DNA from: a bacterium
GTDB lineage: Bacteria > UBA8248
DNA: 64,000 nucleotides
Assembly: GCA_965202625.1 (NCBI GenBank)
Contig: CBDBBI010000010.1
Coordinates: forward strand, 384,001 to 448,000
Direction of reading: 5' to 3'
Under the pieces are notes generated by a model. The model was not told where the DNA came from, searched no databases, and saw only the letters and a program-made list of their open reading frames with translations. Every line of letters starts with the position of its first letter. Position 1 is the stretch's first letter. Below are positions 56,741 through 63,497 of the stretch, in pieces. A program made the position numbers and the translations under genes.

Positions 56741-59131
56741 ATGACAGTCGAGAACAGCAAGATTGTTGAAGCGATAAAGGATTGGGCGCGTCGCTTATGG
56801 CGTCGAATAACGAGCTCAACTCCCGAGGAAGAGGATGACTCGCGCAATCCGCCAGATGGAACTGGTGAACCCGAATCACAAAATGCGCCAACAAGACGCG
56901 AACCGGAGCGAGAACCACCAGACGCGCGTTCCGGCGATATCGATCCTATAGATGATACCGATCCTGTAATGACTCGCCCCGAACCTGAACCCCTCGTTTG
57001 CGATGCGGGTGATGGGCAAGACGGCCTGCCTCGACCACCCGACCCACCACCGCCTGAGACTTCTGAGCCTACAGGCAATGCCCCAACGGGGGAGGGTGAA
57101 GAATCAACGGAACCTACGCTAAAGGCCTCAAGCGAGATTGGGGGGGAGGGAAAACGCAATGGGACTTCGACGAAAAATCCCCAGAAGATATCAGAAGATA
57201 ACAACGAAATGGATCGCAAATTCACGCCTCGCCCAGAGATCATTTGCCGAAATCTCCGCGGGCATTGGAAAGTGTTTCTGTCCGTAGATGACGAATGCGG
57301 CGTCAAGGAGGTGCGGCACAGCGGCGGCGAAACTTTGCCCGTGTCGGACGGCGAATATCCCCTCCCGTCCTTAGCCGGAAGCTTGTCTGTCGTCCTTGAG
57401 GACGATGGGCATAGTGAATTGATAGTTCCTTTGTTTGACGGCAAACCCCTCATCTTCAAGTTGCAGGAGGATTGGACCGGCGACGGACACAAGGTCGAAC
57501 GCATCACGAAGGGGTACTTCGTCGTCATCGCGCCGAACACCTGGACGCGCACGGGGCGCATTCGCGTGGAGTCGCAAGAGTGCGTAGATCCAAACTTCAA
57601 AGCGCACTATTTCTTTCAGCAACCAGGTGAAGCAGAGGCGGACGTGGGCGGCTTTAAGGAATACTCCGGGCCGTTGTTCGCCAATTCTTCCCTTACGCTC
57701 AAGGGCGAGCGCGTTTTTGACGACTCTGATGAAGGGGAGCTGTTCATAGGCGCCGTTCCAGAGTTGACTCCCTCGCAGGAAATCGCCTGGGTAAGGGTTG
57801 GCGAAGAACGGACGGGCGGCTGGAAGGGCGATAGCTACAGGCCGGACGAGAAAACTCTCGCTGACGTGCTGAACGACCGGCAAGGGCGGTTTTATGTCCG
57901 CGTTTACGGCAACGAGTCGAAGAAGATGGTGGATAGCGATCAGTTTCGCTATCTACAAAGTCTCAAAGAGATTCGTGTAAACGATGAGCTATATACGAAA
58001 GACGTGATTCTTGCGCCGCCTCCTGCAGGGTATCCTCCGACAGAGGTGTGCTTTGTCGGCGTCGATGGCGCGCCCATTCGCCCCATCTTGCCGTCCGAAG
58101 CAGCGCACGTGAAAGTGCTAGGGAGCGATCTCATCGTGGATCCGGTTCCGTGCAGCGACAACATATCGTGCGTGCTGGAGTCCGACACCGGTCGCGTCGA
58201 TATCGTCTTGAATCTGCCGCGCATCTGGTGGCGGATGGCGCGAGGCGGTGAGGAAGCCGATGAATGGCGAGATACCCCCCTGACGATGACGCGACAGGAA
58301 TATCGTGCGAATGCGGAGGCGGAAGCGGCAATTCATTTGCGTCTGCCGCGAAAAATCAAGTCGGTTCTCGTGGGTTTCGGGGATGAGGGGGATCGATCAT
58401 ACCGCCAGAAAAAGACGGGAGACGACATCGCGATTCCACTGATGAATTTCGCCGATTATACGCAGATTGACGAGCGGCTGAAACAGGACGCCTTGTTTAA
58501 CGCCCGATATGGCGAGGTAGATTGGACGCTTGTCAGGGTTTTTGCCGACCCCGCGCCGAGGATCGTCTCCTTCGAGTCGGAACCAGGGAAGATTGCGGTC
58601 GGAGGGACGGCGACGTTGCGTTGGGCGACCAAGAACGCGGAGGCTTGCGGCGTTCAGATCGATTCCGGAATCGGGGCGGTCGAACCTAACGGGAGTCGTG
58701 AGGTTGCGCCCTTGAAGAACACAACCTACACGCTGAGGTTGACGGCTCCCTATGTGGATAAGGTGATGGGAACTGTTCATGTGACCGTCAGCGTGCAGGA
58801 GTCGGGCACGACACCACCTGTCGTCACAACGGTGGACTATATGGCCGCGTCAACGACTTATGACGAAATGTTTGAAGAGGCGCTTGATGTCGTCAAGAAT
58901 CGCTTTTTACTCTCGGTGCTGCTCGCCAAGCGGGTGGCACAACTGCGGCAGGGGGCGGAGCCCCTGGTCGCCGCGCAGCCGAGGGACACGCAGCCGAGGG
59001 AGACGCATGAGCAGATCGTGTTCCGGGAAATTATCGAGGAGAAGCTGGAGTGGCGAAAGACCGCCTCGGCGGCTGACTTTTCCGACATGGACCACGGGTT
59101 TGCGGACGAGGGGTTCGACGACGGAGAGTAG
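56741..59131 (+). CDS. Multidomain partner of DUF1998 helicase: disordered N-terminus, beta-rich core, Ig-like domain, C-terminal RNA polymerase omega-like domain
   Basis: Single 796-aa ORF; last ~96 aa EEALDVVKNRFLLSVLLAKRVAQLRQGAEPLV...IVFREIIEEKL match RpoZ. Confidence 0.8.
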   Translation: MTVENSKIVEAIKDWARRLWRRITSSTPEEEDDSRNPPDGTGEPESQNAPTRREPEREPPDARSGDIDPIDDTDPVMTRPEPEPLVCDAGDGQDGLPRPPDPPPPETSEPTGNAPTGEGEESTEPTLKASSEIGGEGKRNGTSTKNPQKISEDNNEMDRKFTPRPEIICRNLRGHWKVFLSVDDECGVKEVRHSGGETLPVSDGEYPLPSLAGSLSVVLEDDGHSELIVPLFDGKPLIFKLQEDWTGDGHKVERITKGYFVVIAPNTWTRTGRIRVESQECVDPNFKAHYFFQQPGEAEADVGGFKEYSGPLFANSSLTLKGERVFDDSDEGELFIGAVPELTPSQEIAWVRVGEERTGGWKGDSYRPDEKTLADVLNDRQGRFYVRVYGNESKKMVDSDQFRYLQSLKEIRVNDELYTKDVILAPPPAGYPPTEVCFVGVDGAPIRPILPSEAAHVKVLGSDLIVDPVPCSDNISCVLESDTGRVDIVLNLPRIWWRMARGGEEADEWRDTPLTMTRQEYRANAEAEAAIHLRLPRKIKSVLVGFGDEGDRSYRQKKTGDDIAIPLMNFADYTQIDERLKQDALFNARYGEVDWTLVRVFADPAPRIVSFESEPGKIAVGGTATLRWATKNAEACGVQIDSGIGAVEPNGSREVAPLKNTTYTLRLTAPYVDKVMGTVHVTVSVQESGTTPPVVTTVDYMAASTTYDEMFEEALDVVKNRFLLSVLLAKRVAQLRQGAEPLVAAQPRDTQPRETHEQIVFREIIEEKLEWRKTASAADFSDMDHGFADEGFDDGE
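58841..59131 (+). other. rpoZ: RNA polymerase omega (RpoZ) domain, in frame with the upstream ORF; possible internal start
   Basis: NRF.L....AKR..QL..GA.PLV and REI..KL motifs, acidic tail; ATG at 58841 preceded by GGTGGA. Confidence 0.8.
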
Positions 59132-59144
59132 CCTCTCCCCCCTC

Positions 59145-59234
59145 CGTGCGCGTCAGTTGACGCCCATCGACAAACGCCGTCGCAGTGCACACCAGCGCAA
59201 CATAGAGATGCTTGGGAGGTTGATGGATGCCTGA
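59145..59234 (+). pseudogene. Out-of-frame remnant resembling the C-terminal half of ribosomal protein L13e
   Basis: RARQLTPIDKRRRSAHQRNIEMLGRLMDA* versus the L13e pattern A..LGIPVD.RR.S.H..NVE.L; stop overlaps the helicase ATG. Confidence 0.6.
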
Positions 59235-62200
59235 CGCCAACGACATGCAAACCATACAAACCTGGCCCGAAAAAATTCGACAACGTTACGAGAACTATTT
59301 GATAACCTCCTTTTTTTTTTCAAAGAGCCAAAATTGCGGGAATCGTTCCAGGCGGCTCTTCAAGAAGAGGGGAATCTTTTGAAAGGCCCATGCACCGAAA
59401 CGGACCGGGGCTTCAAGACCGGCTCAAGCGCGAGGGCATTGGCAAAGGGATGTTTTCCGGACGAGAGCGAAGGTATTCTCCCTGCACTGATCGATGCCCC
59501 CTTGTATTCGCATCAGGAAGGAGCCATTCGCGCCGCGCATATCGACGCCCGGAACGTCGTCGTCGCCACTGGTACCGCCAGCGGCAAAACGGAGAGTTTT
59601 CTCTACCCGATCCTTTTCGAGTTGTATCGCCAGCATCTCTTTGGGGAACTCGAAGAGCCAGGCGTGCGTGCGATGATCCTGTATCCAATGAATGCGCTCG
59701 CCAACGATCAGCGCGAGCGTCTGGGCAAAATCTGCAAGCATTTGCGCGATGCAAATTCGGCGTTCGCGCCGACGTTCGGACAATACATTGGGCAGACGCC
59801 CGAATCCGCTACGGACCGTTGGCGCAATGCCGCCGAGCGGGCGAAAGAACGCCTGCCCGGAGAACTCGTATTCCGCGACGAAATGCGAAAGAAGCCGCCC
59901 CATATTTTGCTGACGAACTACTCCATGCTGGAATATCTGCTTATTCGCCCCGACGACAGCCCTTTGTTCGACGATGGCCGCGGCGCGCGCTGGCAATTTA
60001 TCGTGCTTGACGAGGCGCACCAGTATCGCGGCGCCAAAGGCATGGAGATGGGTATGCTCCTCCGGCGCCTCAAGCAGCGGCTGCGCGACGGAGGACGGCA
60101 AGGTTCGTTCCGCTGCATCGCCACCAGCGCGACCATTTCCTCTGGCGAAAGCGATAAAGACAGGCGAGTTGTCGCCGAATTCGCGCAGGAGCTGTTCGGA
60201 GAACCCTTCCAGTCGGCTGGCGTTATTTTTGGCGATACACGGCCGGAAGCCACTGATTGTCCTCCACGCCGCTATCATGCCTTTTTGCGCGCTCTTGAAG
60301 GGGCGTTTCTCGTTCACAGGGACGGCGCGGATGCTGTCGTGCTCAATCGGAAGAGCGAAACTGAGAACGGGTCAAACGCGAAGCCGTTGGAAATCGCCCT
60401 GTGCCGTGAATGCGGCCAGTATTACTACGTTGGTCAGGAGCGAGACGGAAATCTGGGAGAAGCCGTCCGAGACCCCAGTCAACCCGACTTTGGCGTGGAC
60501 TATTACCTGGCAGCGAAGGATGGAGACAAGTGGCTGTGCAGGCTCTGCGGCGCGCTTTCAAAATCCACGTCGAGTTGTGATTGCGGCCCGGAGGTTCGCG
60601 TGAAGGTGAAGAAGTGCAAGAGTCACAAAGGGCACCCCGACCAACTGAAGGAATGCGAGACCTGCGGTTATCAACGCGGCGGCATCGGCGATCCGGTGCA
60701 GGAGATCGTGCATGGCTCCGACGGGCCCAACGCCGTCATCGCTACCGCCCTGCACGAATTGCTGCCGGAAGACAAACGCAAGGTGCTTGCCTTCGCCGAC
60801 AGCCGGCAAGAGGCAGCGTTCTTTGCCTGGTATGCCGAGGACTCCTACGAGAAGCTGCGCGACCGCAACCTCATGTTGCGGGCGATCAAGGCGGGAAAAG
60901 TCGTCCCGGAAGGCCTGTCTATCGACGATCTCCGAAACCGGCTGCACAAAGAGTGGGAGCAGGCTGGTCTGTTCAGGGAGACGGATTCGTCGGAAGGGCG
61001 AGACCGACGGGTGCTGACGTCAATTCTGCGCGAGGCGCTGACGGACGAAAGGCGGCTGTCCTTGAGTGGTGTTGGCCTGGTCAGGTGGTTCGTCAGGATT
61101 CCCGACAAGTTGCATTTGCCGGAAGCCATGCGAGAACCGCCATGGAAATTCACGAATGCCGAGGCGCGGCATCTGATCGGGTATCTCCTGGACGAGTTGC
61201 GCCTGCGCCGCGCCATGGACTTGCCGAAAGGTGCCGCAACGCCTGCATGGGGCGACGTATTGCCTCAACGGCCGCAGCAGGCTTACGGCAGCGGGTCGCC
61301 GGGCAAGCGACCGAACGTCTCTGAATGGGGCAGCCCTCAATCCGCAGTCATCCGACATTTCCTTCACCGGTTGCTTGATGACAGCGGCCTGTCTGAAGAA
61401 GGGAAGCAATCGGCGTCGAGGAAACTCATGAAGGACGTGTGGAAAAAGCTACGGAGTTATTGCGGCGAAACCATCCTTTCGTGCGGACGTGTGAACGGTA
61501 CGTTTCGGCTTGATCCGCGCTGGCTGCGGCTCAAGCCGGTTGCGCCTGGCGAAATCTGGGAGTGCGACACCTGCGCGACCTTGAGCGCTCACTACGTTCG
61601 CGCCGTCTGCCCCCGGAATCGTTGTCCCGGAACCCTGGTGCCCGCCGACGGAAGGCGCCTCGAGAAAAACCACTATCGCATCCTCTACGAAAGCGATGCT
61701 TTTCCTCCCGCTCTGAGGGCGGAGGAGCACACTGCACAGATCGACAGCGACGCGGCGCGCCAAAGGCAGAACGAGTTCAAGAATGGCAAGATCCATCTTC
61801 TCAGCTCTTCCACTACGTTTGAAGTCGGCGTCGATTTGGGGGATCTGAAAGTCGTGTTTCTCCGCAACGTGCCGCCGGAGCCGTTCAACTACACCCAGCG
61901 CGTCGGACGCGCGGGGCGAAGAGAGACTGGCTTGGCGCTGACCTACTGCCGCCGCAATCCACACGACTTATATTACTACGAAGATCCGGGGCGCATAATT
62001 GACGGCGCGGTGCATCCGCCGCGCCTGCGGATGAAGAACGAGAAAATCATCCTGCGGCACCTTGTCGCCACGGCCCTCTCCGCGTTCTTCAGGAAAAACG
62101 TTAGAGCGCGCTTCACCAAAGTAGAAGAATTTGTGAAAGACTGGTCGAGCCCCCGCGCCGCGTCCGATCTCAAGGAGTTTTGCGAGCGCAACAGCGAGTT

Positions 62201-63497
62201 GACGGATTCACTCCGCCAAATCGTTCCGAAGGACATGCGCGAACGAGCGGGGCTCAAGGATGACGCCTGGATTGAGAACGTCGCGGGACCAAAGAGTCGG
62301 CTCGCCAAGGCGGAGGCGGAAGTATGCGCAGATTACAAAGAGATGTCGAAGACTAAGGATACTCTCATCAAGGAGCAGCCTTCCAGGTGGACTGACAAAG
62401 TCAAACAACTGCAAAAACGTATGAAAACCATCGCCGGCGAACAAACCTTGAATTTCCTCTCACGCAAGGCCGTCATACCGAAATACGGGTTTCCGGTCGA
62501 CGTCGTCGAACTCGATACTCGGCCCGAATACGGCAACCGGACGGGCGTCACGCTCCAGAGAGATTTGTCCCAGGCTATCGCTGAATACGCGCCGGGCGGG
62601 AAGGTGGTGGCCAACAAACAAGAGTGGGAATCATGCGGCGTGAAGGTGGTGCCCGGAAAGGCATGGCCAGTCCGACGTTATCAATACGATGACGCCCGCA
62701 ATTTTGCGCAATGGAATGAAGGTGATCCATCCAGCTCGCACAAGCGCCTGGGGAATATGCAAGCTTATGGGAAATACTTGATCCCGGAGTTTGGTTTCGT
62801 AACGCCGTTGTTCAAGAAGCCCGAGAAGCCGAGCCGGCGAGCGCAACGATTGTACACAACCCGGCCGTTCTTTGGAGGCTTCGCTAACGACCCTCGTCTC
62901 GAAACTAAGACAATCCTCGGCGTCCAAATCACTAAAGCGGTGCCTGGTACCCTGGTCATATTATGCGAGGGCAAGAACAGGGAAGGCTTCTATATCTGCC
63001 GTTCGTGCGGCGCCCACATGACAGCGAAGAAAGCCGAGCACAAATCCCCCTCGGGTTCCGAATGTCGAGGCACCTTGGAACGCTTCTCGCTTGGGCACGA
63101 ACTGGTCACGGATGTGGTGCGCTTGCAGTTTCCGGGACTGCGTGACGAATGGAAGGCCTATTCCGTCGCCTACGCTGTCCTGCTCGGCGCGGCGAAGGCG
63201 CTGGACGTTCCGGATATGGACCTGAACGTGACGATTACGGGCGGCGGCGATTCGGATGCGTCCGCGATCGTGCTCTACGACAACGTGCCTGGCGGAGCCG
63301 GACTGGTGGAGCAACTGGAGCGGGAGAGCGTCTTCAGAGAGACGCTTCAAAACGCGCGCGCGCGGGTGGAGGGCAACTGTGGCTGCGACGCAAGCTGTTA
63401 CGGCTGCCTGCGCAGCTACCGCAACCAATTCGCGCATCCGCATCTGGATCGAGAGCAAGCGTTGCAAGCGTTGGAATCCCAACTCGCGCACGCATGA
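59227..63497 (+). CDS. DEAD/DEAH-box SF2 helicase with C-terminal DUF1998 (DruE/MrfA-like); frameshifted at T10 59311-59320
   Basis: ATGTASGKTE, LYPMNALANDQ, DEAH, TSAT, FADSRQ, STTFEVGVD, QRVGRAGRR, CGCDASCYGCL; GGAGGT RBS before ATG 59227; main ORF 59334-63497. Confidence 0.9.

Follow-up and report, generated by a model that had tools for sequence, protein, structure and literature searches.

The operon and the displaced gene end

At the right end of the 64,000-nucleotide (nt) stretch of bacterial DNA analysed here (the window, to which all coordinates refer), a two-gene operon on the + strand comprises a fused gene followed by a gene for a DruE-like helicase. The product of the fused gene, referred to as P0001, consists of a low-complexity N-terminal region (about amino acids (aa) 1-159), an all-beta immunoglobulin-like (Ig-like) core and, as its C-terminal tail, a complete RNA polymerase omega subunit encoded by a captured copy of rpoZ. 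This gene stops at a TAG (59129-59131), and 95 nt separate it from the ATG of the helicase. The stretch 59141-59234 is, with high confidence, a fossil composed of the last 30 or so codons and the original stop of an ancestral C-terminal module resembling the ribosomal protein eL13, which the captured rpoZ displaced.

Read in the frame that ends at TGA 59232-59234, the 95-nt spacer translates to PLRARQLTPIDKRRRSAHQRNIEMLGRLMDA*. With codon starts at 59139, 59142 and so on, the frame reads PLRARQLTPIDKRRRSAHQRNIEMLGRLMDA*, and the coding stretch 59148-59231 encodes ARQLTPIDKRRRSAHQRNIEMLGRLMDA, in which ARQLTPID starts at 59148. The TGA lies within ATGCCTGA (59227-59234), forming an 8-nt stop/start overlap with the helicase ATG at 59227-59229. 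An earlier note on this DNA had described an L13e-like peptide in another frame of the spacer, with a stop overlapping the helicase ATG, and both can be read directly from the letters; the location it gave holds, whereas its exact start at 59145 does not, the remnant being recognisable from about 59142-59148. Homolog tails end in ...RRSVPIDRRRRSAHRENVETIRRLIDA*, and the relatives that were fetched end in ...GGWKYGKGFSYGELEEAGLATADAARRSVPIDRRRRSAHRENVETIRRLIDA, the second half of which, including the final D-A-stop, is matched nearly residue for residue by the spacer peptide. Among 12 fetched homologs, the nine closest eL13-tailed ones have ...GKGFSYGELEEAGLATADAARRSVPIDRRRRSAHRENVETIRRLIDA-like ends and match ARQLTPIDKRRRSAHQRNIEMLGRLMDA residue for residue.

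The homology of the remnant was quantified with a tail profile of 61 positions, built from the C-terminal tails of 104 homologs with the window excluded (alignment A1), against which the remnant frame scores 35.8 bits over positions 34-61. In a scan of the 3.09-Mb genome with this profile (filters off; 77,361 stop-to-stop six-frame segments of at least 20 aa), the remnant frame was the sole significant match, with an E of 1e-8 and 36.4 bits. The runner-up, C10:376865-376949 (E 0.027; profile positions 8-35, a part absent from the window), runs antisense within a 294-aa open reading frame (ORF) and was therefore treated as a chance match. Against a profile of the last 28 positions the remnant attains 51.6 bits, a value reached by none of 100,000 random background windows, each of 33 codons and drawn from 40 related loci with the tail regions excluded. 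Hardly any decay is visible in the remnant, whose 30 codons contain neither a stop nor a frameshift.

Table 1. Features of the operon at the right end of the window.
Feature	Position	Strand	Evidence or remarks
Fused gene, 796 aa (P0001)	56741..59131	+	ORF and translation
Captured rpoZ copy, 311 bp	58830..59140	+	11 nt of 5' flank, ORF and stop 58841-59131, 9 nt of 3' flank
Untranslated 3' remnant of eL13-like C-terminal module, about 30 codons and stop TGA 59232-59234	59141..59234	+	Tail-profile positions 34-61, in a frame other than that of the fused gene
Shine-Dalgarno-like GGGAGG	59214..59219	+	7 nt before helicase ATG
DruE-like (YprA-family) helicase gene	59227..63497	+	PADLOC DruE1; Pfam DEAD, Helicase_C, MZB
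T10 homopolymer	59311..59320	+	T8 in-frame

The eL13-like tail of the family

Relatives of the Ig-like core are numerous. A word-indexed search with residues 160-690 of P0001 gave 192 matches, many of them pre-annotated as PF01294 (Ribosomal_L13e), and a full HMMER search with the core returned 4,955 representatives at E<=0.001, spread over many phyla. The eL13-like tail (...GKGFS..EL..AGL....RRSIPIDKRRRS.H..NIETIRRLIDA*) terminates 208 of 253 proteins, a set made up of P0001, 120 close matches and 132 representatives of 50% clusters, and is missing from the other 45; it is likewise present at 30 of the 40 related loci, which come from named metagenome-assembled genomes of many phyla. The expectation that homologs of 56741-58790 end in a full G.GFS..EL...D.RRRS.H..N domain was thus borne out.

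The likeness to L13e proposed in the earlier note also holds at the profile level. A profile of 104 homologs retrieved 73 PDB sequences at E<=1, the best 60 of these 73 all being eL13 (top E 5.1e-11), and the alignment spans the G.GFS..EL..AGL....P.D.RR....N core, corresponding to residues 18-67 of a 157-aa eL13 chain. On the homolog P0007 the Pfam model Ribosomal_L13e scores 25.3 bits (cut-off 24.9) over profile positions 56-104 of 180; on P0006 it scores 18.2 bits. The archaeal '50S ribosomal protein L13e' model of NCBIfam (NF008914) gives a partial match over positions 26-75 of 83, with an E of 1.2e-13 and a score of 50.5 bits, its cut-off being 96. AlphaFold2 models P0007 with a mean predicted local distance difference test score (pLDDT) of 88.5 and its tail as ordered (pLDDT 73-93), with two short strands and two short helices besides the IPID.RRRS loop and a helix at the end.

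About 50 of the 180 Pfam positions are covered, and the module forms the tail of a protein of 600-900 aa; judged by sequence, the family tail is a fragment of some 50 residues homologous to the conserved core of eL13 and not a whole ribosomal protein. The usual tail aligns to the G.GFS..EL..AG.......I.VD.RR....H..N core of eL13, yet it differs in standing, with these 50 or so residues, at the end of a bacterial non-ribosomal protein and in scoring at or below the curated whole-protein cut-offs, and the window differs further in keeping only the last 28-30 codons, untranslated. Bacterial ribosomes are not known to contain eL13. The ancestral tail may have bound nucleic acid, as the earlier note proposed.

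Source, age and junctions of the captured rpoZ

The captured rpoZ of the earlier note was copied from the genome in which it resides. It is identical at 304 of 311 nt (98%) to the native rpoZ locus G000:C10:1175976-1176286(-), the similarity extending into the upstream and downstream flanks (9 of 11 and 8 of 9 nt, respectively), and beyond 58830-59140 the window and the native locus are unrelated. Within the 291-nt ORF the copies differ at four sites, all synonymous (66 synonymous and 222 non-synonymous sites), and the fused omega protein is identical to the native free-standing one over 96 of 96 aa. The genome contains exactly two omega matches, that of the window and C10:1176069-1176236. Since the rpoZ proteins of other species of the same genus are only 75-83% identical to the tail, the capture was recent and drew on the bacterium's own chromosome. 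At codon 23 the native state is backed by 11 of 18 same-genus rpoZ genes, which places the change on the fused copy, and at codon 55 the fused state is backed by all 18, which places it on the native copy; from such comparisons the two copies are seen to have drifted apart independently.

The only Pfam match of P0001 is to omega (RNA_pol_Rpb6, aa 715-769, 32.9 bits against a cut-off of 26). Its tail resembles RpoZ (PF01192) in being a complete omega, identical to the resident protein, but it is fused behind a scaffold of about 700 aa instead of being free-standing. Other proteins of 437-1393 aa with this omega tail were found neither among 115 candidates at E<=0.001 nor among the 253 proteins. 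The only homolog in a genome of the same genus (G007) is 43% identical and eL13-tailed.

The left junction falls within about 58826-58838 and the right one within about 59138-59152. P0001 aligns with the family up to the end of the last Ig-like domain (..TYTLRLTA...VTV..) and over some linker residues beyond it, after which rpoZ begins. Positions 1-33 of the tail profile (..RR.GGGW..GKGFS..EL..AGL..ADA) are absent from the window, and positions 34-61 make up the spacer. About 30 codons were thereby exchanged for 311 bp. The idea that an L13e-like domain had been replaced is correct as to the replacement; only the 5' half of the module, however, was exchanged.

Helicase start signals within the old gene end

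As a rule in this family, the start of the helicase gene is written into the last codons of the tail. Gene ends of homologs read aggagg...gATGccTGA, the codons of ...I-R-R-L-I-D-A being ..AGGAGG...GATGCCTGA, and both the start codon and the Shine-Dalgarno sequence of the helicase lie inside the tail's last codons as the family norm. At 26 of the 40 loci an ATG within the last 14 nt of the first gene opens a long ORF, which in 25 of the 26 continues into a conserved helicase N-terminus (M..D.I..WPE.IR.RYENYLKTSFFFKEP); the overlap measures 8 nt in 25 of the 26 and 14 nt in L059. The ATGCCTGA of the window is the same ATGnnTGA overlap as found at 25 of the 40 loci, in agreement with its interpretation as the hallmark of the original gene end. 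In the old frame, the GGGAGG of the window encodes the G-R of ..LGRL.., where most homologs have RR (AGGAGG). Because ATG and Shine-Dalgarno sequence are both inside it, any swap that leaves the helicase expressible must keep the remnant stretch, and its retention probably reflects selection for the helicase start region.

The helicase, of about 1,410 aa, matches the PADLOC models DruE1 (E 1.8e-157) and DruE3 (E 8.6e-149), with the best stretches in the C-terminal half (aa 740-1410). Its frame is broken after codon 31 by a +2 frameshift in the T10 run, leaving a 51-codon ORF (59227-59382) before the long frame that extends to 63497, and a T8 run would give TSFFFKEPKL, as in homologs. Public runs were checked as Logan contigs, among which those of X4 and X5 (both from a single sample, from which the assembly may derive) have T10, and those of X6 (another sample of the same study) and X1 (another study) have two letters fewer, at depths of 2 and 3.9. 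T10 could reflect an error in sequencing, a gene that is dead, or phase variation at the homopolymer.

The variable slot in other genomes

Several of the 45 proteins without the eL13-like tail are fragments or giant unrelated Ig-repeat proteins, and others carry whole foreign modules, so that the other swapped domains anticipated in the earlier note do exist. Pfam identifies ribosomal protein S17 at the end of P0068 (E 2.4e-30, profile positions 1-67 of 68) and at locus L048 (E 5.6e-28), both domains of S5 in P0083 (P0196 is similar by eye), S6 in P0253 (E 8.3e-23, profile positions 1-90 of 90) and weakly in P0256, and the N-terminal part of TrcR in P0251 (E 2.3e-10). Weak matches below cut-off were obtained for P0168, to the helix-hairpin-helix model HHH_5 (E 0.0068), and for the tail of L055, to HTH_12 (E 0.043). 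At least six further tail classes match no family model in Pfam, some of them having been searched against PDB as profiles too; in these comparisons of tail-class profiles with PDB nothing was significant, the best E being 0.066 for A3 (of a basic coiled-coil type) and 0.82 for A4, with no match for A5. The proposal of a slot filled by pieces of gene-expression machinery therefore holds for the identifiable tails and does not extend to these classes. By sequence, the identifiable occupants appear to be small RNA- or DNA-binding proteins (the eL13 fragment, S17, S5, S6, TrcR-like) or a subunit that binds RNA polymerase beta'. Two further ideas, an S6-like identity of the tails of P0057, P0059 and P0195 and a likeness of the L055 tail to the N-terminal domain of RNA polymerase delta, are backed by no model and are not claimed.

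Fossils of the eL13-like tail are found behind other tails as well. At each of seven loci with alternative tails, one pre-set stretch was scored, namely, in the ancestral phase, the 33 codons that run up to the helicase ATG. Scores were 19.3 bits for L055 (reached by 0 of 100,000 background windows), 8.9 bits for the S17-tailed L048 (4 of 100,000), 8.2 bits for L057 (5 of 100,000), 6.7 bits for L049 (42 of 100,000) and 4.4 bits for L056 (221 of 100,000), where the remnant is split by a frameshift. In the L055 remnant (L055:7925-7999) the old TGA now reads CGA. At four to five independent loci an eL13 fossil thus persists beyond the stop codon of a more recent tail, in a more decayed state than that of the window. 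It follows from these fossils that the eL13-like tail is ancestral and that insertion of stop-bearing cassettes is the recurrent way in which the slot changes. Two of the 30 eL13-tailed loci, L052 and L053, carry a segment of about 70 aa in frame between profile positions 27 and 32, adjoining the window's breakpoint at position 34; the insert of L052 (L052:7405-7611) has no Pfam match.

The tail of L055 has one 39%-identical paralog in its own genome, L070:1378-1899 (-). This paralog is a free-standing protein of 173 aa with a very acidic C-terminus and belongs to no Pfam or NCBIfam family. An L070-type gene may be the type of host gene behind the L055 class of tails.

Alternative explanations

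A trivial origin of the arrangement would be an assembly chimera, in which reads of the native rpoZ were misjoined into the defence locus and the apparent remnant is no more than the in-frame close of an eL13-tailed gene that is still intact. With its 10 contigs the genome is a draft, the rpoZ segment is a two-copy repeat, and short-read graphs merge its shared 288-bp core into a unitig of its own, all of which would make such a misjoin easier. The two copies differ, however, at 7 of 311 positions, and removal of the segment would not restore the gene, the 30 or so codons of profile positions 1-33 being gone. Contigs of X4 and X5 moreover bridge both junctions with 0 differences, the left one over 58700-58866 and the right one over 59095-59450, and a contig of X6 bridges the right one (59095-59185), bridging being defined as extending 31 nt past a junction, whereas the flanks of the native rpoZ branch off as separate loose ends. 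A chimera is accordingly considered highly improbable. Mere chance, by which a basic, arginine-rich, out-of-frame peptide in G+C-rich DNA happens to resemble eL13, deserves a thought, because 64 kb in six frames offers some motif matches to a reader with many motifs in mind. It can nevertheless be virtually dismissed in view of the genome-wide E against the family profile, obtained without a competitor, of the empty upper tail of the background distribution, and of the exact position and phase of the family tail end, which come with the same stop/start overlap.

The history and the present use of the segment can also be viewed differently. An older omega tail acquired from elsewhere could later have been made host-like by gene conversion with the resident rpoZ, in which case the identity would be uninformative on timing. 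Gene conversion between paralogs is common, and identity is indeed higher within the ORF (4 differences in 291 nt) than in the flanks (3 in 20 nt). Homology that reaches into the non-coding native flanks is, on the other hand, not expected of an older foreign tail, no other omega-tailed member of the family turned up in the searches described above, and the near-undecayed state of the remnant, compared with the 4-19 bits found behind other tails, fits a recent event; conversion of an older tail is thus very improbable. A small ORF or leader at work today would be slightly less so, although still improbable: the mini-ORF MLGRLMDA* (59208-59234) or the 124-codon frame 58860-59234 might couple ribosomes onto the helicase start. 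The latter frame is open throughout and closes with the ATGCCTGA overlap, overlaps of this kind are known to allow termination-reinitiation, and the original coupling was lost when, after the swap, the fused gene came to stop 95 nt upstream. Yet the stretch occurs in none of the RNA runs, the open part 58860-59140 is an out-of-frame reading of rpoZ, and such a leader would concern present use only, being compatible with an origin of the stretch as a remnant.

Several observations weigh against the displacement of an eL13-like tail by a recent host capture, or limit its reach. The 31-aa peptide alone, like the 124-aa frame that contains it, has no Pfam match at E<=10, and the peptide has no PDB match at E<=10; this does not refute the remnant, because significance comes from the family profile. 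Put in the terms of the earlier note, which looked to the tails of homologs and to a profile match of the peptide for a refutation, the homologs do carry L13e-like tails, and the peptide, matchless by itself in Pfam and PDB, is significant against the family profile. Core identity to the closest eL13-tailed relatives reaches only about 55%, a direct 'before' allele did not turn up, and the breakpoints are placed to within about 10 nt on either side. The support from X4 and X5 may stem from the assembly's own sample, X6 belongs to the same study with a depth of 2, and the X1 contig extends only 13 nt beyond the left junction, too short to count as bridging (its depth is 0 at 59142-59167, a gap not taken as evidence); the run data are not counted as fully independent support for the junctions. 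Of the four synonymous changes, only one or two can be assigned to the fused copy, too few to show purifying selection on its omega. With the helicase frameshifted in the assembly, the locus may lack activity and the swap may be non-adaptive. At two of the seven loci with alternative tails there is no significant remnant, namely L063 (1.0 bits; 3,365 of 100,000) and L047 (-2.0 bits; 39,856 of 100,000). As for host capture as a rule, G061 has an S17 tail that shares only 46% identity with the S17 of its own genome and has no match at the DNA level, and three of four other tails or inserts (L052, L063 and L057) have no second copy in their own genomes at E<=0.01. The general rule that every tail was copied from its present host is ruled out by these four cases. 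On balance, the interpretation put forward in the earlier note is supported.

Relation to known systems

The operon invites comparison with Druantia type III (DruH-DruE). In E. coli, DruH, the partner of DruE, is described in the sections consulted of two reports as an Ig-like scaffold with a C-terminal domain, in which single-stranded DNA is bound between the fifth Ig-like subdomain and this domain at the C-terminus and the Ig-like region is the proposed phage sensor (10.64898/2026.05.12.722862, 10.64898/2026.05.12.724681); E. coli DruE is there described as having two PLD domains (10.64898/2026.05.12.724681). The present locus is likewise a two-gene operon whose second gene encodes a DruE/YprA helicase with an MrfA-type zinc-binding (MZB) domain and whose first gene encodes a large Ig-like beta protein with a C-terminal domain, as those sections describe for DruH.

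The differences are nonetheless considerable. No PADLOC model, including DruH, matches any of 63 family members at E<=1, and P0001 has no such match at E<=0.01. The helicase shows no PLD domain in Pfam at E<=10 (its matches being DEAD, MZB, Helicase_C and three weak unrelated ones), is shorter, and is aligned by the DruE models mainly in its C-terminal half. An AlphaFold2 model of residues 160-796 of P0001 (mean pLDDT 85.8, the core mostly above 90) is a chain of beta-sandwich domains with only beta strands up to about model residue 525. A Foldseek comparison of the core model with PDB (library up to 2026-04-08) returned only generic multi-Ig proteins with template modelling (TM) scores of 0.09-0.17, DruH structures not being among the matches. 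From sequence and models, the architecture appears Druantia-III-like, and membership of that type is not claimed.

In a term search, 'ribosomal', 'L13' and 'RpoZ' did not occur in the searchable text of the two reports on DruH and DruE or of the YprA preprint (10.1101/2025.09.15.676423); 'omega' has 0 occurrences in that of the YprA preprint and two, outside the portions seen, in that of 10.64898/2026.05.12.722862. Neither the partner family nor its eL13-like tail is described in the literature searched, nor are swaps that involve omega or ribosomal proteins, although Table S1 of 10.1101/2025.09.15.676423, which lies beyond the part consulted, may list the helicase clade. The locus is a Druantia-like helicase system with a new partner bearing an exchangeable C-terminal slot.

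A further parallel is the integrated decoy of plant NLRs such as RRS1, proposed also for the bacterial bNACHT11. In it an immune protein carries a copy or mimic of a pathogen-targeted host component (PMC11702601). Similarly, the defence-type protein described here contains a host RNA polymerase subunit in exact copy, and whole ribosomal proteins are present in its relatives. The parallel would be one of analogy only.

Proposed history and function of the slot

The following course of events accounts for the present arrangement. A 311-bp copy of the bacterium's own rpoZ locus, made up of the whole ORF and stop together with 11 nt of upstream and 9 nt of downstream sequence, landed in frame in the middle of the module, presumably by illegitimate recombination, and replaced about 30 codons (..RR.GGGW..GKGFS..EL..AGL..). 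The fused protein has since ended in a full omega subunit, the old 3' end no longer being translated. With the stop that came with rpoZ, the phase of the leftover 3' end ceased to matter, and it happens to be out of frame. The remnant presumably now serves as the 5' leader of the helicase, with the Shine-Dalgarno sequence in old codons and the ATG in the old ..GAT GCC TGA end.

As to what the slot does, the C-terminal module may be a targeting or binding module on the Ig-like scaffold partner, directed to nucleic acid in the case of the eL13, S17, S5 and S6 tails and to RNA polymerase beta' in that of omega, a reading that is the likeliest of those considered yet falls somewhat short of even confidence. 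A role as bait that mimics host gene-expression parts is conceivable but rather unlikely. More doubtful again is the fuller picture of a re-armable bait or tether, in which whole small genes captured from transcription and translation, omega here and S17, S5 and S6 elsewhere, with an archaeal/eukaryotic-type eL13 fragment as the default, would dock the Druantia-like helicase system to phage-hijacked machinery, or mimic it, and so sense phage factors attacking RNA polymerase or ribosomes; the eL13 fossils would then mark a single hot spot that was re-armed again and again. A neutral or degenerative accident, at least for the omega swap, is, by a little, the least expected of these readings, and it stays alive because the helicase is frameshifted in this population.

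The locus is a rare case in which a domain swap in an immune-type gene can be read in the DNA, with the donor still present at 98% identity and the replaced domain preserved as a fossil. It also exposes a widespread partner family of DruE-like helicases with an exchangeable C-terminal end, the usual occupant of which is a fragment of a ribosomal protein foreign to bacteria, and in which whole bacterial ribosomal proteins and an RNA polymerase subunit are alternative occupants. If the slot does target or mimic gene-expression machinery, natural tail variants on one scaffold would make infection sensing by Druantia-like systems directly testable.

N-terminal region and surroundings

The N-terminal region of P0001 (56741-57217, aa 1-159) is long, of low complexity and rich in proline and acidic residues. 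A short conserved motif (..I..W.RRLWRR..) precedes the proline- and acid-rich part and is found at the N-terminus of many homologs, the remainder of the region being very variable in length. Among the relatives, P0005 (1,366 aa) has a second Ig-like repeat at its end, and in P0101 the last part of such a repeat comes first and a full core after it; the two may represent a tandem pair or a fusion of two family members. On the 5' side of the operon lie housekeeping genes on the opposite strand, encoding a short-chain dehydrogenase and a flavin reductase.

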